Notes: generated from the letters alone by a model not told the origin. DNA of 64,000 nucleotides from Dehalococcoidia bacterium (GCA_965225815.1 CBDDBP010000006.1:314066-378065); one strand, 5' to 3'; shown: positions 31,032 through 62,037, counted from the first letter of the stretch. Numbers and translations are program-made.

Positions 31032-31482
31032 GAATCCAGGACTCGTCCCACCGATGCCTTGAGTCGTGGCGTAGCAGCCGGTCTCGTCTCCAATTGCATC
31101 CCCTCCGTCATTTCACCGTGATGCGTTAACTCGAAGCAGTGCGCAGGGCCAGAAGACCTTGGTACTGAGTACACGGCCAGTGATGGCTACGGCGCCGCCT
31201 GGTCCTACTAAGTCTACTTTCGCAAAGATGAGTATTCGCTCATGGCCTCTTCAACGGGATCGTCCCTGCGCCAGTATGGCTTTCTCAGCGAGCCAACACG
31301 ATGGACGCATAGTGGGGGTCGATCGCGACCCCGTAGCAGCTCCGACCGGTGCGCTCCGCAGCGAACAGGGTGCTGCCAGGGCCGGGAACAGGTCGCCGGG
31401 GCGTGCTTACTCAGTAACTGCCAATAGGTGGTCACTTACGTGGTCAAAGGCACGAAAACGCCCCTCGAATCGCCCATCTCAG

Positions 31483-31528
31483 ATGCAAAGGCGGTGAGTT
31501 CTTGGTGGAGACGGGGGAGAATCGAACT
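31483..31528 (-). mobile_element. att-like scar 1: tmRNA/tRNA 3'-end fragment overlapping a serine recombinase C-terminus
   Basis: minus strand reads AGTTCGATTCTCCCCCGTCTCCACCA; plus strand encodes SWWRRGRIEL; 30-bp exact copy at 48611-48640. Confidence 0.7.
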
Positions 31529-31741
31529 ACACTTAGTTCCGTCGACGAGGGTCGCCGACAGTGGACTTCAGGTTCAGAACTCCTCCGTTTCGTCTCCGAT
31601 AGTCGGCATAAGTCGCTGTGATAAGCCGTCAGATACGTCGTCAAGGTTCTGGCGCTCTCCTTTTGGTATCCCACGGCGCGCCCCATCGCTCTGCCCCTAC
31701 TGCCGGCTTGGCCGCAAAGGGCCACGGATTCGGAAGCAGCG

Positions 31742-31769
31742 TTGACACCCCCCTCCTTGACGGCAGAAT
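31742..31769 (+). promoter_or_regulatory. repeated sigma70-like promoter motif, copy 1
   Basis: TTGACA-N16-CAGAAT, about 10 nt before ATG 31779; related copies at 32090, 33430, 34094, 35786, 61934. Confidence 0.55.
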
Positions 31770-31778
31770 CACGGCACC

Positions 31779-32093
31779 ATGGCGAGCGAGCACAGTCCTG
31801 ACAATCCCGACCTCGCGCCTCATCCAATCCGCGAGCAATCACCTCTGAGGCACCTTGAAGCGCCAGCCTTTCGAGACCGCGCGGGCGGTCGAAAGCCTGG
31901 GTTACTGCGCGCCTGGCTGCTAATGGCTGTGGCGCTCCTCGGACCGGGCCAAATTCTGGTTGGCTACATCGTCGTTTCATCGGGACTTACGCAACTTGGT
32001 TTATTTCTTCTCGTAAGCGGTTTGGGGATGATGGGGTTGGTCATTCTGGCATTGATTCTGGTCGGATTTCTGCTGGTCACTCCCGGCCTTTGA
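31779..32093 (+). CDS. small membrane protein (cassette-like)
   Basis: 2 TM; flanked on both sides by the promoter motif. Confidence 0.5.
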   Translation: MASEHSPDNPDLAPHPIREQSPLRHLEAPAFRDRAGGRKPGLLRAWLLMAVALLGPGQILVGYIVVSSGLTQLGLFLLVSGLGMMGLVILALILVGFLLVTPGL

Positions 32094-32237
32094 CACCCCC
32101 CTCACCAGCGACAGGATCCGTTGGTGGCCGTCCTCCTTTGCAATTTTCGATGAGATACGCGGCCAGGCGGGTTGCAGTCCTGGCTGCCTCACAGTAGCTG
32201 CTGGCCAGTCTGGGTGCCTAACAAGTAGGCTGCTGCT

Positions 32238-33167
32238 ATGCTTGGCGTCGCTCTAGCGCTGCTCTCCGCGTTGTCGTTCAGCCTCCAGAGCGTCATGGCT
32301 CGACGCGGCATGGCGCAGGCCTCCCCCACCGCCGGAGCATTCATCACGATCTGGCTCGGCGTGCCGATCTTCGCGATCGGAGCGCTCGCCAGCGGTCAGC
32401 TGTTCAATGTCGATGGGCTCTCGCTGAAGGCTTACGGATTCCTCGCCGCGGCGGGCGCCATCCACTTCGTCATCGGCCGCAGCTTCGGCTACCGAGCCAT
32501 CGCTGCCATTGGCGCCGCCCGCACCGGGCCGATTACGGCCCTCACGACGCCCTATAGCATTCTCATCGCGATCGTGTTCCTGGGCGAGAACATCTCCCCC
32601 CTTATGGCGATCGGCGTCCTCTGCATCCTTGCCGGTCCCGTGATTATGATTGAAAGACGGCAGCGCCAGCCGGTAAGCGTCGGGGCCGGCGCTCCAGCCG
32701 GCGAGGAAAAGGCCTTCGAGTTCAAGCAAGTGGAGGGCTACGCCTCCGCCGGCATATCGGCGATGGCATACGGCACCAGTCCCATCTTCATCCGCGCCGC
32801 TCTGGAGGGCGAGGCGGGGCTATCCCTCCTCGGCGGCCTAGTGTCCTACACGGCGGCGGCGCTCCTTATGCTGGTCGGCGTCGGCCTGACCAGCCGGCGT
32901 GATCTGGTTACGTCGCTGCGTCCGGAAACCGTCCGGGCATTCGTCGGGGCAGGCTTCCTCTCCGCGATCGCCCAGATGCTGCGGTTCGTCGCTCTCTCGG
33001 TCGCACCGGTCGCCATCGTGACCAGCCTCAACCGCGCCGGCAACGTCTTCACGCTCGGGTTGTCGTGGCTCTTCAATCGCCGCCTCGAGTTCATCACGCG
33101 TCGCGTCGTAGCCGGCGTGTTGCTTTCGGTTCTCGGCGCCATCGTCCTGGTGATCGGCAGTCAGTGA
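32238..33167 (+). CDS. EamA/DMT family transporter
   Basis: 10 TM, two EamA repeats, FLGE motif. Confidence 0.9.
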   Translation: MLGVALALLSALSFSLQSVMARRGMAQASPTAGAFITIWLGVPIFAIGALASGQLFNVDGLSLKAYGFLAAAGAIHFVIGRSFGYRAIAAIGAARTGPITALTTPYSILIAIVFLGENISPLMAIGVLCILAGPVIMIERRQRQPVSVGAGAPAGEEKAFEFKQVEGYASAGISAMAYGTSPIFIRAALEGEAGLSLLGGLVSYTAAALLMLVGVGLTSRRDLVTSLRPETVRAFVGAGFLSAIAQMLRFVALSVAPVAIVTSLNRAGNVFTLGLSWLFNRRLEFITRRVVAGVLLSVLGAIVLVIGSQ

Positions 33168-33309
33168 GCCGTGAGCCTGATCGCGCTAGGCGTCCAGCAA
33201 CTCTGACGCAGCCACCGGCGAGCAAGCGATGCGGTCTGCGCTGCCTCGGCGGGGTCGCCTCACTCTCAAGCAACAATCACCCTACTCTGGTCAACCGACT
33301 AGGACTAAC

Positions 33310-33402
33310 CACCTCGATTTCGCCATCGCTGAGTTCCAGGACATGAAAACGCAGCCGGCGCTGGAGCGGGCGCTTGGGCGTCGGGGGCTGCTGAAGGCGT
33401 AT
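33310..33402 (+). repeat. orphan gene-end repeat R1
   Basis: HLDFAIAEFQDMKTQPALERALGRRGLLKA. Confidence 0.92.
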
Positions 33403-33512
33403 CATTCTTAGTGCGTTGGTCACTGGCCTTTGAATTCTTGCCTCGCCAGCGACAGAATCACAGCGCTTAGCATCGTCTCATCCCGACTACTCGGAGGTAA
33501 GGAGCATCCTGT

Positions 33513-33893
33513 GTGGCGTCAGAGCCTGGGCAGCCAGTCACCTGCAGGCAGTGCAGCTCTGTCTTCTTCAGTAAAGAGGAACTCGATAGACACCTAGCCC
33601 AGACGGGCCACTCGTCTCAGTCTCACCTTCATCGCTATGGGCGCTATCTCCCTCACGCTACCGCGGGTCTTGGTTATCTTGTCGTCGGACTCCTTTCTGA
33701 TTTCGGAAGTGGAACTTTACTCATTGGCGGGCTAGGTGGTTACTTCACAGGCTGGCTCATTGCAAAGACGCTTGGCGTCCCAATGGGCAGGGGTGGTCGA
33801 GGCGGAGGGGGCTGGGGGGGAAGTGGAGGAGGCGATGGCGGCAATGGAGGCGGAGGTAATGGTGGTGGGGGCGGCGGCAACGGAGGCCCTTGA
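33513..33893 (+). CDS. C2H2 zinc-finger membrane protein with Gly-rich tail
   Basis: CRQC...F......RH...GH; 2 TM; GGG tail; AAGGAG RBS. Confidence 0.6.
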   Translation: MASEPGQPVTCRQCSSVFFSKEELDRHLAQTGHSSQSHLHRYGRYLPHATAGLGYLVVGLLSDFGSGTLLIGGLGGYFTGWLIAKTLGVPMGRGGRGGGGWGGSGGGDGGNGGGGNGGGGGGNGGP

Positions 33894-33948
33894 ACGCTTA
33901 ATCCTGGCTACGTTACGCAGGAACGTTGACGGTATGCAGCATCAAGCC

Positions 33949-34032
33949 TTCGCCATCGCCGAGTTCCAGGACATGAAGATGCGGCCCGCCCTGGAACGGG
34001 CGCTGGGGCGCAGAGGGCTGCTGAAGGCGTAG
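33949..34032 (+). repeat. orphan gene-end repeat R2
   Basis: FAIAEFQDMKMRPALERALGRRGLLKA*. Confidence 0.92.
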
Positions 34033-34165
34033 CCCGTGTTTCCTGGCTTACTCACTAACGGATACACAGACTGTGTCCCGCGTAAGCAGACCATTGACAG
34101 CCACCGACGGCAGAATCATTATCCCGCGAGAAGCACGATACCTGAGTAAGAAAGGGAGAAAATCA

Positions 34166-34579
34166 ATGGCAAGTCAGACCGATGTAGCAGGCAGAATAGC
34201 TCTTACGGTTCCTCAGTTCTCCTGGGATCATCCAATTCCTTTGGGTGTTCGGCTCGGCAATCTGGTTATCTCGTCCATAATTCCGCCGCGCGATCCGGAA
34301 ACCGGCGGCACACCATCGGAAGTTAAGCGACAGGTTGAGCTCGTCTTCCAACACATGAAGGGGCTGATCGAGGACGCCGGCGGCACAATCGATGACATCG
34401 CGCGCGTAACGTTCCTCGTCAGGAGCAAGGCAGAACATCGGCCACTCATCGACGAGGAGTGGAACGCAATGTTCTCGGCAGCTGGAGTTCAGCCGGCCCG
34501 GCTCGTCATTGAGGTTCCACCGCAGGGCGGACCATCCATCCAGTGCGAGTTCATCGGCATGCTTGGCTCGAAGCCCTAA
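34166..34579 (+). CDS. RidA/YjgF family protein
   Basis: HPIP...R.GNL, Q...VF..M..L...AG....DI, EW..MF....PAR. Confidence 0.85.
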   Translation: MASQTDVAGRIALTVPQFSWDHPIPLGVRLGNLVISSIIPPRDPETGGTPSEVKRQVELVFQHMKGLIEDAGGTIDDIARVTFLVRSKAEHRPLIDEEWNAMFSAAGVQPARLVIEVPPQGGPSIQCEFIGMLGSKP

Positions 34580-34661
34580 GACGTACCCCGCAGATCAGGG
34601 AGTATAAGAACGATAGCCGCCGTTGGGTCGTCAGGGGCGGCCATCGGCAGCCTTGGAGCGT

Positions 34662-34736
34662 CGCGACGCCGCTTCCGAGCACCTGGACTTCGCCGTCGCC
34701 GAGTTCCAGGACATGAAGATGGAGCGTGCGCTGGGA
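34662..34736 (+). repeat. orphan gene-end repeat R3 (internal deletion)
   Basis: RDAASEHLDFAVAEFQDMKM----ERALG. Confidence 0.85.
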
Positions 34737-34743
34737 TGGTGCT

Positions 34744-34974
34744 ATGAATACTGGACACTACCTCGAACCGATGATCGACGACTCGGAACAGGAGTGCGTG
34801 TTTTGCGGAGACCCGGCTGAGCATCGACTGCTCTGGACGGGGCCAGGATTCTTCGATACGTCTCAAGAAAGTGAGCATCAGGCAGGAACGCACTACCTCA
34901 GAGAGATAGACGAAAGCGTCTGCTCCGAGTGCGGGCAACTACCACTGGATGAGCTCCTGAATCGCCTCGCCTAG
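34744..34974 (+). CDS. small CxxC protein
   Basis: CVFC...CSEC; starts 8 nt after R3. Confidence 0.5.
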   Translation: MNTGHYLEPMIDDSEQECVFCGDPAEHRLLWTGPGFFDTSQESEHQAGTHYLREIDESVCSECGQLPLDELLNRLA

Positions 34975-35026
34975 AAGCTCAGATGAAGGCTCGCCAGAGA
35001 GGCAGCCTTCATGGGTATCGAGCAGC

Positions 35027-35116
35027 CTTGATTTCGCTATTACCGAGTTCCAGGACATGAAAATGCAGCCGGCGCTGGAGCGGGCGCTGGGCCGCAGGGG
35101 GCTGCTGAAGGCGTAG
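35027..35116 (+). repeat. orphan gene-end repeat R4
   Basis: LDFAITEFQDMKMQPALERALGRRGLLKA*. Confidence 0.92.
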
Positions 35117-35152
35117 GGGGTTGGCTCCATCGCCCGCACGGGCCTAGGGTTC

Positions 35153-35668
35153 TTGCGCGTGACTATTCGCTACTTAGCAATTGCCAGCTTTGGAACCGGG
35201 CTAACTGCGCTGGTCGGGTTTATGGTGGGACTGGCCGATCCTGCGTATTACGCTCCCGAAACCACCCTCGACTATGCGGCCGCCACACTCAACACCCTGG
35301 GGCCGGTCGCCGCCGCGGTAGCCCTGTTCATTTGGTGGAAGGTGGTGCAGGTCAGGAGGGGTGTTTTTCTTATCCTGATCGCGGCAGGAAGTGGCTTGGG
35401 GTATGGAGTTGGTAACTTCCTCGGAGATATTGCTGGCTGGGAGCCGGGAGATGACCTGTTCTTTTATGGAAGCGCTGCGTTCTTCTTTGCGTCGTTCGCC
35501 GCCGGCGTCGTGGTTCTTACGGTGCGAAGCAATTGGCGATGGTCTGGGCTATTTCTGCTGGCTGTTGCCGCGGGCGTCGGTGTCGACTCAGCCCTGGTCT
35601 CGGCCATTGGCTGGCTCGCTCTCGGGGTAGTCCTGTGGAAGGGCCTCCTCGGCCAAGCTGAGACGTAA
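35153..35668 (+). CDS. membrane protein (5-6 TM)
   Basis: hydrophobic ORF filling the R4-R5 interval. Confidence 0.65.
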   Translation: MRVTIRYLAIASFGTGLTALVGFMVGLADPAYYAPETTLDYAAATLNTLGPVAAAVALFIWWKVVQVRRGVFLILIAAGSGLGYGVGNFLGDIAGWEPGDDLFFYGSAAFFFASFAAGVVVLTVRSNWRWSGLFLLAVAAGVGVDSALVSAIGWLALGVVLWKGLLGQAET

Positions 35669-35714
35669 TTTCGGCGGCGGCTGAGTGCCTGGTTAAAGTT
35701 CAAGGTTGGCACCC

Positions 35715-35765
35715 CAGTCTGCATTAGAGCGAGCGCTGGGGCGTCGAGGACTGCTGAACGCGTAG
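35715..35765 (+). repeat. orphan gene-end repeat R5 (short)
   Basis: QSALERALGRRGLLNA*, followed by GGTCAC...TCTGGCCTTTGACA promoter motif. Confidence 0.85.
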
Positions 35766-35854
35766 GGTCACCTGCCGTCTGGCCTTTGACACCCTGACTC
35801 GCCAGCGACAGAATCACGACACCGTGACCAGTCACGGGATTGAGCGCCCCCGGC

Positions 35855-35943
35855 GAGCACCCAGCCTTCATCATTGTCGAGTCCCGAGATATGAAGAGGC
35901 AGCCTGGCCTGGAGCGGGCGCTTGGGCGGCGCGGGCGCGGTAG
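35855..35943 (+). repeat. orphan gene-end repeat R6 (degenerate)
   Basis: EHPAFIIVESRDMKRQPGLERALGRRG. Confidence 0.8.
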
Positions 35944-35965
35944 CGGGCCGTCGTTCTGTGCTCCC

Positions 35966-38091: not shown

Positions 38092-38182
38092 GACGCCGCT
38101 ATCGAGCTACTCGAGTTTGCAATGGCGAGTCCAAGACATCAAGATGCGGCCGACGCTGGGGCGTCGGGGGCTGCTGAAGGCG
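38092..38182 (+). repeat. orphan gene-end repeat R7 (degenerate)
   Basis: DAAIELLEFAM..DIKMRP..LGRRGLLKA with indels. Confidence 0.8.
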
Positions 38183-38183
38183 C

Positions 38184-38211
38184 CGTCACACTATCGCCCG
38201 ATCGTGTAACC
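38184..38211 (+). other. 28-bp 11-6-11 palindromic site S1
   Basis: CGTCACACTAT-CGCCCG-ATCGTGTAACC. Confidence 0.75.
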
Positions 38212-38223
38212 ATCTGGCCTTCA

Positions 38224-38301
38224 GTCGCTGACTGCAAGGACATGAAGATGCAGCCTGCGCTGGAGCGAGCGCTGGGACGTAGGGAGCTGCTGAAGGCGTA
38301 G
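38224..38301 (+). repeat. orphan gene-end repeat R8
   Basis: VADCKDMKMQPALERALGRRELLKA*. Confidence 0.9.
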
Positions 38302-38455
38302 AGAACCGCAACTCGCCGTCGATGAAGGCGTAAAACAAAGCCCGACATGCTGACATGGTTACCTACCACCGTCAGAGGAAGAGGCTGGAGCCGGTTTTCA
38401 GACGTGGCATCCCTGACACTACGGATCTCGATCCTCGCGGTGTCGCCGACGGCGA

Positions 38456-39837
38456 TCAGCCAGAGTCGTCCGCCACAGGCTGTAGACGCCGCGGCGGTCT
38501 GGCGAAGATGACCACCACCGCCGCGATGCCTGCGGTCGCGGCGAAGGCGAGGAAGGCTGAATCGTAGCTGCCAGCGGCATCATAGACACGGGCCGCGAAC
38601 TGCGGACCGATGGCCGTCGCCACCGCGATCAGCGGCAGGGCGACGCCTCGCACCTTGCCGATGTTGACCCGCCCGTAGTACGTCGCCCAGATCAGTTCCT
38701 GCAGGGGAACGCGACCGCCGAAGCCGAGACCCCAGCCCACAAGAAAAAGATAGAGCACCAGTGAGCTGTCAGTGTTGAGGGAAAGGACGATGCCAGCCGT
38801 ACAGACCGACATCAGACCGAAGCTGAAAGAGGCGCAGAAACGCGGTGCGAAGCGCTGCATCATCGCTCCCCAAATCGGGCGTGATAGCGCTGTCGCAAGC
38901 AAAGCGGTGCTGAATCTCGCAGCTCCGGCCTGAGAAGAGAAGCCGGCGTCTTGAACGTTGCGATGAAGTGGAGGAAGAAGGCGCCCGTGCTGAAGCTCGC
39001 CAGAGCAAACGAGACGATAAGCAGCCAGAACGTCTTTGTGTGAATCGCCTCTGCTCTGGTCCACTGCTCCTCAGTAGCGGCCGTAACGACGAGTCTCCTG
39101 CCCGGTGTGGCTTGGATGTCCGCTTCGTCGGTGTCGCCGTCTGGCATGAGGCCGTAGTCCTCGGGACGTCGTCGCATGACTAGCGCTGCCGGGATCGCCA
39201 GGACCAGGAGGCCCAACCCGAGAATCATCCACGAGGTCTCCCAGCCAAAGGAGTCCACAAGCGCGGCTACAATGCGCGGTGTCACAGCTCCGGAGATCGA
39301 CAGGCCGGTCGTGGAGATCGTGATAGCCCAGGCTCGTCGGCGCACGAACCACTTGGAAACCGTCGTGTTGGCGACCAGGTTGCCCAGCATCATCGCACCC
39401 AGAGCGATACCGACGCCCCGTAGCAGCAAGAACTGCCAGATGCTGTCCACCTGGCTAAGGCTGACAACGCTGGCCGACATCACGACGGCCCCAACCAGCA
39501 TGAAAGGACGAGGGCCCTTGGTGTCGAGATGGCTGCCGACCAGGAAACCGCCGCCGCTCATCACCAGCGTCCCCAGGGTCTGGGCCCATGTGAAGTCAGT
39601 TCGGGACCAGCCAAGGTCAGTCGTCATCGGCTCCAGGAAGACGGCCTGAGCGTGGCTCTGTATCGCTACGGCCGTCATCTGGGCGCAGAGAGCCGCCACG
39701 ACTATGTACCAGCCGTAGTAGACCTTACGCGGACGTGCGGCTTGGAGGCGACCAATCAGGCGATTGCGAGCGCGAGGTGGCTCCGCCACGGTCTGACGCA
39801 CGTCAGCGCTTTCCGGCCCTGAGCCAGGTAAGCTCAT
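38456..39837 (-). pseudogene. MFS transporter (OFA-like), frameshifted near 38950
   Basis: YYGWYIV, PMTTDLGWSRT, KWFVRRR; C-terminus YYGR...GKVRG in another frame. Confidence 0.8.
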
Positions 39838-39997
39838 CTTGCGGCAATACTAAAGGCTGAGCGCTTGCTCCGTTGATGGTGCCATATTGACCGAGGACCT
39901 TTTAACAGTTTGCGCCGCCATGTGTAGCGGTTTGGAACGTCAATGACACTCCAGTGGCCGTCGGGCCTGACCCAGAGCTTGCAAGCATTACGATCTG

Positions 39998-40078
39998 ACC
40001 ATCGCCGAGTTCCAGGACATGAAGATGCAGCCTGCGCTGGAGGGGGCGCTGGGACGCAGAGGGCTGCTGAAGGCGTAG
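39998..40078 (+). repeat. orphan gene-end repeat R9
   Basis: TIAEFQDMKMQPALEGALGRRGLLKA*. Confidence 0.92.
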
Positions 40079-40105
40079 GTCACACTATCGCTTGATCGTG
40101 TGACC
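40078..40105 (+). other. 28-bp palindromic site S2, abutting the R9 stop codon
   Basis: GGTCACACTAT-CGCTTG-ATCGTGTGACC. Confidence 0.8.
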
Positions 40106-40119
40106 ACCTAATCCCCGCA

Positions 40120-40193
40120 CTCGCCGAGATCCGGGGTATGAACATGCAGCCTGCGCTGGAGCGGGCACGCGGACCGGGGCGCTGAAGGCGTAG
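40120..40193 (+). repeat. orphan gene-end repeat R10 (degenerate)
   Basis: LAEIRGMNMQPALERA...GCTGAAGGCGTAG. Confidence 0.8.
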
Positions 40194-40324
40194 CTGGTTT
40201 AGCCTAGGAATCTGTCGCTGGCAAACAAGTGTATTAGCGCAAGGCTGTATCGAGAGGGATGGCTTTCAGAAGGGAAGCGGCCCCACGTACTTCCCTTCTG
40301 AGCCGCCCCAATGAGGGCTCGGTA

Positions 40325-40681: not shown

Positions 40682-40789
40682 AGTGCTCCTCTCCAACTGT
40701 TGTTTGGGGCAAAGCACAGCGTGACGATCTTGGCTTACAGGCCGCTTACGAAGATTACGCTTTGGAGGCATTCCCAGAATCCACGAAGT

Positions 40790-40846
40790 GCGGGCGCTAG
40801 GACGCCGGGGGGCTGGAGGTGTAGGTCACTATTTGGTCATAGTGTC
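40790..40846 (+). repeat. short repeat R11 plus site S3
   Basis: GCGGGCGCTAGGACGCCGGGGGGCTGGAGGTGTAG then GTCACTAT-TTGGTC-ATAGTGTC. Confidence 0.7.
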
Positions 40847-40979
40847 TGTGCGCCAGCAGGCGAAGAGAGCGTCATAGATGAGGACGTAGTGGCTGCGACC
40901 ACCCACCGGAGCCGGCCCAAGTTCCCGATGCTCTACCTGGCGCTCAACTTGACCATGGACCTGTCCCTATACTGAAGTC

Positions 40980-41723: not shown

Positions 41724-41751
41724 CGTTGCACTATGAGGACATCGTGTCACC
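41724..41751 (+). other. 28-bp palindromic site S4
   Basis: CGTTGCACTAT-GAGGAC-ATCGTGTCACC, 13 nt after a stop codon, followed by TTGACA. Confidence 0.7.
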
Positions 41752-41804
41752 CGTTTGACAGCACTCTCTGCTTGCTGTGTCTGCATTCAGGGCGTATCGT
41801 GAGC

Positions 41805-41895
41805 TTGTCGTTCGGGGTGGTCCCGGCAATTTCGGGGCCTGAGAGCACACCCGCGGACCTGATCCGGGTAATGCCGGCGTAGGGAAGGCGATGAC
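41805..41895 (+). ncRNA. TPP riboswitch
   Basis: GGGGTG...CTGAGA...ACCC...ACCTGATCCGGGTAATGCCGGCGTAGGGA upstream of thi genes. Confidence 0.95.
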
Positions 41896-41981
41896 ATTCG
41901 CAGCCCAGCTGTTTCCAGCAACGTCACCGTCTGATTAGGTTTCCGTGACTTGGCCTACCGACCCGGCGGCGGAGGGAACTT

Positions 41982-46225: not shown

Positions 46226-46900
46226 ATGAGATTCACAGACGAACTGTGGCAGAGCACCCTTCCCGTCTACGAGGAGATCTTGCGCCTGCCGTTCATCGAT
46301 GAGCTGACTGATGGCTCGTTATCGCGGGAGCGGTTCGTCTTCTATATGAAGCAGGACGCCTTGTACCTGCAGGACTTCGCGCGCTCGCTCGCCATTACCG
46401 GCTCGCGCCTGCCCGAGCCGGAAGCCGCGCAATCGTTCATGGGCTTCGCGCACGGGGTCTTTGCCGTCGAGCGCCAACTTCACGAGACCTACTTCCGTGA
46501 CTTCGGCGTAGAGCTGGACACAGATAGGGCGCCAGCCTGCTTTGCGTACACGCAGTTTCTCCTGGCGACGGCGACCACCGCGACCCACCAAGAAGCCGCT
46601 GCGGCACTGCTGCCGTGTTTCTGGGTATACCGGGAGGTGGGCAACGAGATCGTCCACCGCGCGCAGGAAAACGTAGCGTCCAACCCGTACTCGCGCTGGA
46701 TCGAGACGTACTCCGGCGAGGGGTATGACGAGAGCGTGACGCGCGCCATCGAGATCGTCGAAGCGCAGGGGCAGTCGACCTCTAAGTCGGGACGCAAAGC
46801 TATGCAGCGAGCATTCCAGAAGTCAACGCGGCTGGAGTGGATGTTCTGGGACAGCGCCTACCGCCTGGAACAGTGGCCACCCGGACCAGGTCAGAGTTAG
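46226..46900 (+). CDS. tenA: thiaminase II / aminopyrimidine aminohydrolase
   Basis: QDALYL, LLPCFWVY, Y..WI.TY, LEWMFW. Confidence 0.92.
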   Translation: MRFTDELWQSTLPVYEEILRLPFIDELTDGSLSRERFVFYMKQDALYLQDFARSLAITGSRLPEPEAAQSFMGFAHGVFAVERQLHETYFRDFGVELDTDRAPACFAYTQFLLATATTATHQEAAAALLPCFWVYREVGNEIVHRAQENVASNPYSRWIETYSGEGYDESVTRAIEIVEAQGQSTSKSGRKAMQRAFQKSTRLEWMFWDSAYRLEQWPPGPGQS

Positions 46901-46904
46901 GCCA

Positions 46905-46932
46905 GGCCCCACGATCAGGCAATAGTGCTATG
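46905..46932 (-). other. 28-bp palindromic site S5 (inverted)
   Basis: GGCCCCACGAT-CAGGCA-ATAGTGCTATG, 5 nt after the tenA stop. Confidence 0.65.
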
Positions 46933-47077: not shown

Positions 47078-47105
47078 GATCACACTATGCCGGCATCGTG
47101 CCAGG
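47078..47105 (+). other. 28-bp palindromic site S6
   Basis: GATCACACTAT-GCCGGC-ATCGTGCCAGG. Confidence 0.7.
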
Positions 47106-48239: not shown

Positions 48240-48640
48240 GGAACTTCGCAACAGACTGAGGAAGTTGGGCGTGGCCTACGTTGAAACCGGCATGTCAGAT
48301 GCCCGGTACAGACATCGAAAGGCAGAGTTAGAAGATCAGATCAAGGCAGCCAGTGCGGTCGTGCCGCCTTCTTATGAAGAGGCAGCGGCTCTACTCTTGG
48401 ATTTGGAAGCACTCTGGAAAGAGGCTACGCCGGAAGAACGTCGAAAGCTCATCAGCCCGCTGATCGAACGCGTCTACGTGGACATGGAGCTAAAGCTTGT
48501 GGGGGCGATCACGCCAACGCCGGCATTCAGGGCTCTACTGCGGTGTGCGGTACAAAGAGCGGCTCCAACATCATCCTGGTCTCTCAAGAGGACATGCAAA
48601 GGCCGGTGGTTTCTTGGTGGAGACGGGGGAGAATCGAACT
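48240..48640 (+). pseudogene. large serine recombinase C-terminal fragment ending in att-like scar 2 (48611-48640)
   Basis: LW..ATPEERR.L...LIERVYVD; ends in WWRRGRIEL after a frameshift; tmRNA-like 3' end on the minus strand. Confidence 0.75.
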
Positions 48641-49368
48641 CGGCGGTAGAACTTCCACAGACGTCCGCAGATGACCTTCATCGAGTGCCGTAGATTCAAT
48701 ATGTTCACTCATCAGTCCGCTAACGGTTGCAGAAGGTCACCAAAATCCGCCGGTGCTGTTGTCGGAACTGTTGTCAATTCAGGGATCGATAGTCTCTGAG
48801 AAGCGAAGAACTTAGGTGCAATTGGAGCGATTCTAACCATGCCACGGAGGCAGCGTGCGGGCCGGCCCTGCATCTGGCGCTGGCAAGTGAAGTCAGAAGT
48901 GTAGGAGAAGGGTGGGAAGGAGACTGCGGTGAGACTCTTGGGCCAGCCAAGTGAGCATGACTCTCGACCTCTACAGCCATGTCACGCCGATTATGCAGAG
49001 GGCCGCGGCCGACGCGATGGAGGAAGTCCTGACCTCAGGCTGACCCGAAACTCCGAATCCTCATCTTGGGACCGACGGATTAAAAGTAGGACGGTGGTGA
49101 GAGGCCCCAGAAGGCCCCGTCTTGAATCTGAGTTACTCCCGTTTCGAGCATCTTTCTCGGCGAGTTCGTTGGTCTGCCAGCCGATTAACTCTCTGGTAAT
49201 TCCTTGGAATTCGCAAGAATTCGGATTAACTGGAATTAATTCAAAGACACGCAATTTTCTCACTGGATCCGGTGGGGCGGGTCTTCGACAGAGCCAAAGC
49301 GAGTCGAACGACAAGCGATTCAAACGGCGAGCCTTTACGGGTGATTCGTCACGACGCTGTGACAGAGA

Positions 49369-61350: not shown

Positions 61351-62037
61351 TGTCTACCAAGGGCTCGGAGCCGGATTCGTTGACGATAAGGAGCGCGACT
61401 CGGAGGCGTCATTGGCGCAGAGGCGAGAGGGTGGGCTCAGCGCCCCTCGACGAGTTCCACTTGCGAGGTCGGCCGCCAGGCGAAAGCGCTACGGCCTCCC
61501 CAACGATCATTTCTGGACGCGGTGCTCGTAGGCCTCGCAATCACCCGGAACAGCCGACGGGCCTAATCATGTAGATTGGCGTGCGACCTCACGACCTAAG
61601 CGCTCAAGGCAAGGATTCGCTCGAATGGCACGTATGCGATTTGGCCGCTATTGAACAGTGATGCCGATGTTCGTCCAGTGGTGAGTAAAGGCTATCCCTT
61701 TTTGCTGACTGTTGCTTTGCCGCGCTAGCTCGCGGAACGGTATGCTCGGCTCTGGTCACCGCGGTGGCTTTCGATGGGTAACGCCATGTCTTCACCTAGA
61801 CCAAAGCAGACCATCTTGTACGGGCTGACTGCCGATCTTGGGAGTCTGGGCTACCGACGTGACAGTCGATCTTTGCTTAGTCCTTAGTTCCGTCCTCGTC
61901 ATCTCGCCAGCATGATGAGCGAATGCGGATCAATTGACAGCACCCGTCGCCGGCGACAAGCTTTGTAAAGCTTGGCCAAAGATCAGCCTACCCACCGTAA
62001 CACCTCGTATTCCTCAACTTGGTTCTACTTCGTGGCC

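Follow-up and report, generated by a model that had tools for sequence, protein, structure and literature searches.

Several kinds of bacterial elements are known in which short repeated sequences bound small gene units or supply neighboring genes with promoters, and they serve here as the frame for a promoter-like motif that recurs in a 64,000-nucleotide stretch of DNA from a Dehalococcoidia bacterium (GCA_965225815.1, CBDDBP010000006.1:314066-378065; hereafter the window). In SCCmec-type composite islands, copies of the rlmH 3' end bound tandem elements, and pdif modules on Acinetobacter plasmids are small gene modules bounded by 28-bp XerC/D recombinase sites with an 11-6-11 layout. Integrons are based on IntI, attI, and attC (IntegronFinder paper, PMC4889954), and their cassettes are read from the promoter Pc or from promoters borne by the cassettes. 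Correia repeat-enclosed elements of Neisseria are reported to be short dispersed repeats that supply promoters and whose presence or absence alters the regulation of adjacent genes (PMC2649163). Genomic islands at the ssrA gene of Dehalococcoides are described as accumulating in tandem, with a direct repeat matching the target gene's 3' end at the boundary of each (PMC3146451). Among the papers listed in literature searches, supplements aside, no description of the system presented below was found, none of gene cassettes or integrons in Dehalococcoidia, and none of transcription start sites in Dehalococcoides.

The genome under study (G000; 3.26 Mb, 61% G+C, 8 contigs, 92.8% complete) carries the window at positions 314066-378065 of contig C7, and window coordinates are counted from its first letter. 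The sister genome is referred to as G015, and L-numbers denote loci from other genomes; the relatives found with the genes of the window are metagenome-assembled genomes (MAGs) of Dehalococcoidia/Chloroflexota. Three elements are distinguished, namely the promoter module P, a repeat R of about 100 nt, and a 28-bp palindrome S. The identity of P and R becomes apparent at C7:86801 (minus strand), where the module heads an open reading frame (ORF) of 1281 amino acids (aa) that begins at the module's GTG and ends with ...AIEHLDFAIAEFQDMKMQPALER, which is a copy of R. The encoded protein matches the Pfam families Pkinase (1e-48), AAA_16 (6e-32), and TPR_12, and the translation of R corresponds to its C-terminus, comprising the last ~30 codons and the stop codon. 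A second, broken copy of this gene at C2:5530 also carries the module. As P is located at the 5' end of the kinase gene and R at its 3' end, both very probably represent the two ends of one gene family encoding a STAND Ser/Thr kinase. We further consider it likely that the motif is the front of this kinase gene, with its promoter, start codon, and initial codons, and that such stubs are reused as promoters in a cassette-like island, with the activity predicted for them being part of this reading.

In genomes of the same genus, the module precedes the same N-terminus (L130, L131, L132, L134; L024, L012). Kinase homologs align from residue 1 onwards with conserved MTSER.., and in three to four of nine full-length homologs from other genomes TTGACA-N17-hexamer is found 8-9 nt ahead of the conserved first codon (L012, L082, and probably L013). 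As the spacing of the boxes is shared with distant homologs, the leaderless layout appears to be ancestral to the kinase family. The kinase gene thus has the features of a leaderless or near-leaderless start, and some cargo genes carry a Shine-Dalgarno sequence of their own. Kinase bodies are scarce in G000, with about six fragments. In a Dehalococcoidia MAG (L024:6440-8740), a full-length kinase gene of this family is split by an insertion of ~2.3 kb with 20-nt inverted repeats at its ends; judged by eye, this insertion contains a RelA/SpoT-like ORF and, on the minus strand, a gene resembling transposases.

With an nhmmer profile built from the genome coordinates of the copies, 23 related copies of the ~50-nt module were found in G000 at E<1e-4, the best having an E-value of 3e-15. 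CAGAAT is the most common hexamer 16-18 nt past TTGACA in this genome, with 18 copies compared to 0.26 expected from 639 TTGACA sites. The strict pattern TTGACA-N16-18-CAGAATC occurs 16 times in G000, 16 times in G015, and zero to three times in 29 other relatives (reversed control, 0), indicating that the expansion of the module is lineage-specific. Conservation extends across the spacer and ~20 nt beyond the -10 box, where it takes in a start codon (GTG or ATG) followed by codons for T-S-E-R. Among the 23 copies, which have a 17-nt spacer, TTGACA is exact in 21 and CAGAAT in 19, and 16 have ATG or GTG at a distance of exactly 9 nt from the -10 box. The spacer carries less information than the two boxes, where the information content is highest. 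The module has the hallmarks of a sigma-70-type promoter, with a TTGACA -35 box, a spacing of 16-18 nt, and a -10 box with A2 and T6. In an orthologous promoter-Rieske pair, the genes of which are 83% identical between G000 and G015, TTGACA and CGACAGnATCAC have been retained and the spacer and upstream sequence have diverged, which is the pattern expected from selection on the boxes; this pair is the strongest single item supporting the interpretation as a promoter. Two genomes of the same order (L109, L125) also have TTGACA-N17-CAGAAT in front of nrdR, 6-7 nt from its start codon; the motif is absent from the nrdR gene of G000 itself.

In the window, the module and its degenerate copies alternate with copies of R and with cargo genes as follows.

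31739-31793, plus strand: promoter module P1; -35 box TTGACA (31742-31747), 16-nt spacer, -10 box CAGAAT (31764-31769), ATG at 31779
31779-32093, plus strand: membrane-like ORF of 104 aa beginning at the start codon of the P1 module; no Pfam family
32084-32120, plus strand: P2, a degenerate copy; TTGACA (32090-32095), N16, CAGGAT (32112-32117), without the family start codon
32238-33167, plus strand: EamA-family transporter gene (cargo; Pfam)
33304-33411, plus strand: R1, copy of the kinase-gene 3' end; its stop codon is changed to TAT and the frame reads through to TAG (33409-33411)
33423-33467, plus strand: P3; TTGAAT (33430-33435), 17-nt spacer, CAGAAT (33453-33458)
33513-33893, plus strand: ORF of 126 aa, cargo behind P3; own Shine-Dalgarno sequence, weak C2H2 zinc-finger match, and Gly-rich tail
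33934-34038, plus strand: R2, full-length copy of the kinase 3' end; TAG at 34030-34032
34094-34122, plus strand: P4; TTGACA (34094-34099), vestigial CAGAAT (34111-34116) after an 11-nt spacer, CATTAT (34117-34122) at 17 nt
34167-34579, plus strand: RidA/L-PSP-like gene (cargo; Pfam)
34674-34736, plus strand: R3, 5' half of R only, running into an ORF of 82 aa (34726-34974)
35012-35119, plus strand: R4, full-length R copy
35153-35668, plus strand: membrane-like ORF of 171 aa (cargo); no Pfam family
35715-35767, plus strand: R5, 3' half of R, ending with TAG (35763-35765)
35779-35950, plus strand: P5 and R6; -35 box (35786-35791), -10 box (35809-35814), GTG at 35824, about eight family codons (VTSHGIER), and a degenerate R (35856-35950)
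61934-61962, plus strand: TTGACA-N17-CAAGCT inside two small palindromes; not a family member

P1 begins with the codons MASEH, compared to the family consensus V/M-T-S-E-R, and the TGA stop codon of the 104-aa ORF falls within the -35 box of P2. P3 and P5 are 87% identical across 39 nt. The arrangement of P4 has been kept along with its cassette in G015, where the hexamer at 17 nt is CATGAT. The 30-nt promoter variant of P5 is identical in G015, where it stands ahead of an ORF beginning with VTSERIQGRINRLLDEAEEA, the N-terminus of the family. The region 35779-35950 is an internally deleted kinase gene, a mini-gene in which promoter stub and tail stub directly adjoin each other. When the module profile was run on the window, it matched at 31741-31790 (E=2e-10), 35782-35834 (E=1e-11), and 33441-33467 (E=0.09), and nothing was found at the other sites; a consensus promoter scan calls the sites at 31742, 34094, and 35786. 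In shuffles of the window, 0.01 exact occurrences of TTGACA-N16/17-CAGAAT are expected, compared to two observed.

A preliminary description of the window, made from its sequence, had listed six variants of the motif. The exact motif is indeed present at 31742 (31742-31769) and 35786 (35786-35814), and the sites at 32090, 33430, and 34094 are variants of it, but the sixth, at 61934, does not belong to the family. It was rejected because it has CAAGCT at the -10 position and is located inside local palindromes, and because the module profile is silent there at E<=1. The shortened spacer noted for 34094 was borne out with CAGAAT 11 nt after TTGACA, yet CATTAT is located at the canonical distance of 17 nt. 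The spacer sequence CGCCAGCGACAGAATCAC reported as shared occurs exactly at 33444 and 35800. The TGGCCT prefix is found at 33424 and 35780, and as CGGCCT at 32084, but TGGCCTTTGACA alone occurs at chance frequency (5 compared to 4.2 expected). As had been described, three of the sites follow copies of R at a short distance of 12-62 nt: R1 ends at 33411 and P begins at 33423, R2 ends at 34032 with P at 34094, and R5 ends at 35765 with P at 35779.

The suggestion that the promoter-like module is repeated ahead of different genes agrees with the Pfam survey of the genes behind it, and the reading of the motif as a portable promoter is supported at the level of sequence comparison. In G000, the module is found upstream of at least ten unrelated genes. 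Among these are genes for two Rieske/LigXa oxygenases, an MFS transporter, a GFO/IDH/MocA oxidoreductase, a DinB-family protein, an MBL-fold hydrolase, a GAF-histidine-kinase/receiver/LuxR protein, and a Prim-Pol protein, and three further ORFs downstream of module copies belong to no Pfam family. The survey left out the ORFs behind the copies at C1:863082 and C1:925417, which are mutual duplicates, and at C8:328659, C8:218127, C6:419929, and C6:446382. The copy at C8:75839 is followed by an ORF of 77 aa only, and no ORF is located downstream of that at C1:443810. Within the window, the module or degenerate copies of it precede the 104-aa ORF, the EamA gene, the ORF with the zinc-finger match and Gly-rich tail, and the RidA-like gene. 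An ORF of at least 100 aa begins at the module's own start codon in four cases. The homolog of the EamA gene in G015 (88% identity) shares the gene and ~16-40 nt upstream of it, and P and R are absent there.

R is much more abundant than the module, with 95 copies in G000 (nhmmer, E<1e-3). All share one 3' end at the stop codon, whereas their 5' ends are graded over ~150 nt, the repeats reaching up to ~180 nt. Frameshifts or truncations affect many copies, and ORFs of more than 220 codons are not closed by any of them. An origin of the 5'-truncated copies by retro-copying of mRNA 3' ends was considered and is unlikely, as a search of the genome (92.8% complete) for reverse transcriptase domains gave no match. 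A comparison of R-copy orientation with local GC skew gave no consistent relation. The two elements are linked in part of the copies: a copy of R is located upstream within 1 kb on the same strand for 6/23 modules (random mean 0.31, maximum 3 in 2000 trials) and downstream within 2 kb for 7/23 (random mean 0.53), so that the module follows R, or R and the palindrome, more often than expected by chance, as had been proposed. Counting two gene-length cases, 11/23 modules are linked to R. For the remaining 12/23, R is absent from the 1 kb upstream and the 2 kb downstream, and they are not followed by a full-length gene.

The copies of R form arrays in which they share one orientation, and the units between them number 56 genome-wide and measure 275-4664 bp. 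Examples of such arrays in G000 are the following.

C7:153858-177079: R array
C7:581854-601014: R array
C6:419349-447565: R array
C1:861770-930194: R array

The array at C7:153.8k begins right behind a truncated kinase gene (C7:150904-153486, aa 59-921). The array in the window has no kinase body ahead of it and no recombinase gene in it or beside it. In other Dehalococcoidia genomes, at least two copies of R are found at 14/78 loci, often directly behind a full-length kinase gene. Comparison with the sister genome reveals reshuffling of the units. Six adjacent units of the array at C7:154-162k are found at six scattered positions in G015, four of which are flanked by R there, too, and the P4-RidA-R unit of the window is 85% identical to a unit in a different R array of G015. 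In one unit the homology between G000 and G015 stops exactly after GCGTAGG, which is the end of R, in another it starts ~20 nt before the end of the preceding R, and other breakpoints are less sharp. The contigs of four DNA runs break at every copy of R, with joints connecting paralogous copies. As in integrons, short cassettes in the same orientation are reassorted between genomes. Two regions at C1:861.8-865.5k and C1:905.5-925.7k, ~42-62 kb apart, are 99-100% segmental duplications of R-bounded units and include the module copies at C1:863082 and C1:925417. An MFS gene is present in two R-bounded units with 76% identity and in opposite orientation relative to the flanking R, namely at 38456-39837 of the window (minus strand) and at C7:592645-593878; the window gene appears split into the ORFs 38456-39064 and 38860-39837, which suggests a frameshift.

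The palindrome S has conserved 11-bp arms and a variable 6-bp center. A relaxed scan yielded 29 sites, ~25 of which were judged real; 11 abut the end of R and three abut the module. In seven R-S-R or S-R joints, the start position of R is always identical. The following joints and copies are located in the window.

38104-38306, plus strand: R-S-R joint of R7a, S1 (38186-38211), and R7b
39975-40200, plus strand: R-S-R joint of R8, S2 (40079-40105), and R9
40783-40847, plus strand: degenerate R end followed by S3 (40826-40847)
41726-41761, plus strand: S4 followed by CCGTTTGACA, which has the -35 box only; upstream of the thiamine pyrophosphate (TPP) riboswitch

S2 is the best copy, with a predicted hairpin of -17.3 kcal/mol (z = -4.8). 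Further copies of S in the window are found at 46907-46930, 47080-47103, and 31294-31317, all at gene or cassette borders throughout the island. S could be a terminator, a REP-like repeat, or an Xer/dif-like module site. The preliminary description had assembled these elements into an ancestral unit of a gene end with TAG, the 28-bp site, and a promoter firing into the next cassette. The sequence ATCTGGCCTT that it cited behind S1 (38186-38211) is present, but its alignment is to the 5' portion of the following R copy and not to the promoter; behind S4 (41726-41748), the cited CCGTTTGACA is found. A full chain of R with its TAG, the 28-bp palindrome, and the promoter does exist at C7:594028-594103, but it is no obligate unit, as 12/23 modules are R-free. 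We read this chain as a probable junction of consecutive kinase genes or stubs, consisting of a coding end, a hairpin, and the next promoter. Since the module is the 5' end and R the 3' end of the kinase gene, the ancestral unit would be a gene junction and not a purpose-built part of a cassette. The idea that repeat, palindrome, and promoter form one module is not supported: several R-free copies appear to drive ordinary metabolic genes, the very outcome named beforehand as speaking against it. Nor is the promoter carried once per cassette, as the module is present in only some units and is also found far from any array.

Compared to the described systems, the locus shares with integrons the arrays of short units in the same orientation that are closed by a repeated site, with a promoter reading in and with units reshuffling between related genomes. 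It differs from them in the lack of IntI and in the nature of the repeated site, which is coding sequence from a kinase gene's 3' end without an attC-like fold. The likeness to the integron promoter Pc that had been pointed out is one of function only: Pc is single and located beside the integrase, whereas the module is the kinase gene's own promoter, is present in some units only, and also occurs outside of arrays. Like Correia elements, the module is a dispersed short repeat giving adjacent genes promoter sequence. Correia elements, however, are miniature elements bounded by inverted repeats that make promoters at their ends, whereas the module is the 5' end of a gene with complete -35 and -10 boxes and a start codon. 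No terminal inverted repeats were found on the module in the alignments of its copies, and the sequence upstream of the -35 box differs among them. The Dehalococcoides islands belong to the same class of bacteria and, like them, R has a fixed 3' end, the window itself being situated in such an arrangement; in contrast to ssrA, the target would be protein-coding, the units of 0.3-4.7 kb have no integrase of their own, and the repeats reach ~180 nt with graded 5' ends. As in SCC elements, copies of the 3' end of a protein gene bound the units, but no Ccr-type recombinase is located beside the window arrays. The 11-6-11 architecture of S resembles that of pdif sites, but S is found at a minority of unit borders and Xer binding is purely putative. 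On balance, we rate the gene-front stub reused as a promoter inside cassette arrays bounded by 3' ends as a variant on known kinds of systems.

If the module functions as suggested, the housekeeping RNA polymerase holoenzyme would start ~7 nt after CAGAAT, i.e., near 31776, 33465, and 35821, and for the CATTAT variant of P4 a start near 34129 is predicted. As the polymerase would transcribe whatever follows, gene-front stubs would be ready-made promoters for captured or neighboring genes, and they could have spread along with R-bounded units via recombination at or near the ends of R. The copies in the window would then be 5' stubs of kinase genes in a cassette-rich genomic island. Several observations weigh against this interpretation. 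The Rieske gene has its own Shine-Dalgarno sequence and an ATG ~40 nt downstream, so that the term leaderless holds for the kinase gene and not necessarily for cargo genes, and the vestigial start in G015 opens a frame of 11 codons. CAGAAT agrees with TATAAT at just 4/6 positions, and P2 with CAGGAT and P3 with TTGAAT fall below the threshold of the consensus scan and may be dead. The contrast of 95 R, 23 P, and ~6 kinase bodies is not explained by simple decay of paralogs. The likeness in spacer and first codons reflects recent common descent, and repetition alone is therefore no proof of function. The comparisons establish the homology of the module to the kinase 5' end, its position ahead of many unrelated genes, and the conservation of the boxes over the spacer, whereas promoter activity and the start ~7 nt past the -10 box are predicted from these.

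An alternative is an integron-like module, in which R as the recombination site, S as the crossover core, and the promoter would be moved together by a site-specific recombinase, with one promoter per cassette. The contiguous R-S-P chain at C7:594028-594103, the three S-P joints and 11 R-S or S-R joints, and the 11-6-11 architecture of S with conserved arms and variable center are in line with this, as are the 56 same-orientation units, the fixed 3' end of R with its continuum of 5' ends, the scattering of the C7:154-162k units and of P4-RidA-R in G015, and the 14/78 loci with several R in other genomes. In addition, 8/23 recombinase loci, to which 22 tyrosine and three large serine recombinase matches in G000 were collapsed, are located within 5 kb of R, compared to a random mean of 2.9, and 0.6% of 5000 trials reach eight; this proximity may simply reflect shared residence in islands, and the window array has no recombinase in or beside it. 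Recombinase genes bordering arrays are of the serine type at C7:580.5k and of the tyrosine type at C7:607.9k, C8:161.5k, and C6:451.2k. Three matches to Y1 transposases were also found in G000. The integron integrase IntI was not found in the 92.8%-complete genome, with a best TIGR02249 score of 81 bits compared to a cut-off of 265, and the best matches resemble XerC/D-type recombinases. R together with its flank is not unusually structured compared to shuffles (z = -0.48), and no GTTRRRY core was seen by eye at the R ends among the 80 rows listed. As, moreover, only 3/23 copies of P touch S, 12/23 are far from any R, and homology between G000 and G015 units does not break off at a single constant nucleotide, we regard an integron-like module as rather unlikely. 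That a dedicated recombination system stands behind the R-bounded units at all is likewise doubtful. Just as tentative is the broader view that Dehalococcoidia possess a class-wide gene-capture system without an integron integrase, in which the last ~20-100 nt of the STAND kinase gene (R) would be the recombination site and the kinase gene the archetypal cassette. Derived cassettes would keep the leaderless kinase promoter in front and R at the back with an unrelated gene swapped in between, and kinase genes would be the points behind which arrays lengthen, with reshuffling from species to species.

The copies of P and R could also be inert debris, i.e., non-functional remains of decayed kinase paralogs whose neighbors use other promoters. 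The many frameshifted or truncated R that close no long ORF, the loss of most kinase bodies, the weakened boxes of P2 and P3, and a family gene in G015 that is broken by an insertion with inverted-repeat ends are compatible with such decay. This explanation is nevertheless improbable, since the boxes are conserved above the spacer in 23 copies and in the orthologous pair, many copies of P are at a sensible distance ahead of intact genes, and random decay would not yield 3' ends ~10-fold in excess over bodies with a sharp 3' boundary. A regulon signal, in which a dedicated regulator or an alternative sigma factor would recognize the invariant GACGACAGAATC and neighboring bases and co-regulate kinases and captured genes, would account for the conservation 3-6 nt upstream of the -10 box and into GCACC just after it, which is kept in the orthologous pair. 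We consider it very unlikely, as the housekeeping pattern is just such a perfect TTGACA at 17 nt, TTGACA is followed at other places in the genome by further -10 hexamers of the TAnnnT/CAnnAT type, and a candidate regulator was not identified. Finally, unrelated promoters might share the organism's generic consensus by chance, and TGGCCTTTGACA alone, not being above chance, and the site at 61934 appear to be of that kind. For the core set, this explanation is refuted by profile E-values down to 3e-15, the common spacer and downstream sequence, and the genome counts of 16, 16, and 0-3 with a reversed control of 0, and it is extremely improbable overall. The reading preferred here thus remains that of kinase-gene stubs reused as promoters.

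The genomic setting of the window is that of an island region. The true ssrA gene encoding transfer-messenger RNA (tmRNA) is located at C7:399523-399879 on the minus strand with the tag peptide GDKQLAYAA, and its 3' end (28-42 nt) recurs twice in the same orientation, at 31487-31528 and at 48599/48611-48640 (minus strand) of the window, both direct repeats lying downstream of the real gene. They mark two tandem ssrA-targeted genomic islands of ~17 and 37 kb, and the whole P/R array is inside the distal one. An Rfam scan gave a weak match to a tmRNA end at 48615-48668 and nothing at 31300-31800. The ORF at 48265-48693 beside the second repeat has no Pfam match and is presumably the C-terminal remnant of a large serine recombinase, which it resembles. 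A second tmRNA call by ARAGORN at C5:168223-168678, which adjoins a copy of R and a broken tyrosine recombinase gene, has an implausible tag of 24 residues and is probably false. ARAGORN found no tRNA in the window. The following is the only match in the window above the Rfam gathering score.

41803-41903: TPP riboswitch (RF00059), 61.8 bits

It is followed by a thiamine-related operon, the last gene of which belongs to the TenA family (46226-46900), and copies of S at 41729 and 46910 bracket this operon with its riboswitch.

With these results, two conspicuous repeats, P and R, would be explained as the ends of one gene, and a concrete route becomes apparent along which an expanded gene family may lend its front end to unrelated accessory genes as a reusable promoter, in a large and mostly uncultured bacterial class with almost no mapped promoters. 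R-bounded units are found behind kinase genes in many genomes of Dehalococcoidia, and sister species differ by their reshuffling; should they be the substrate of a recombinase, they would represent a new kind of gene-capture platform. For genetic tools in Chloroflexota, the module itself is a candidate native promoter, putatively strong and with a leaderless start.

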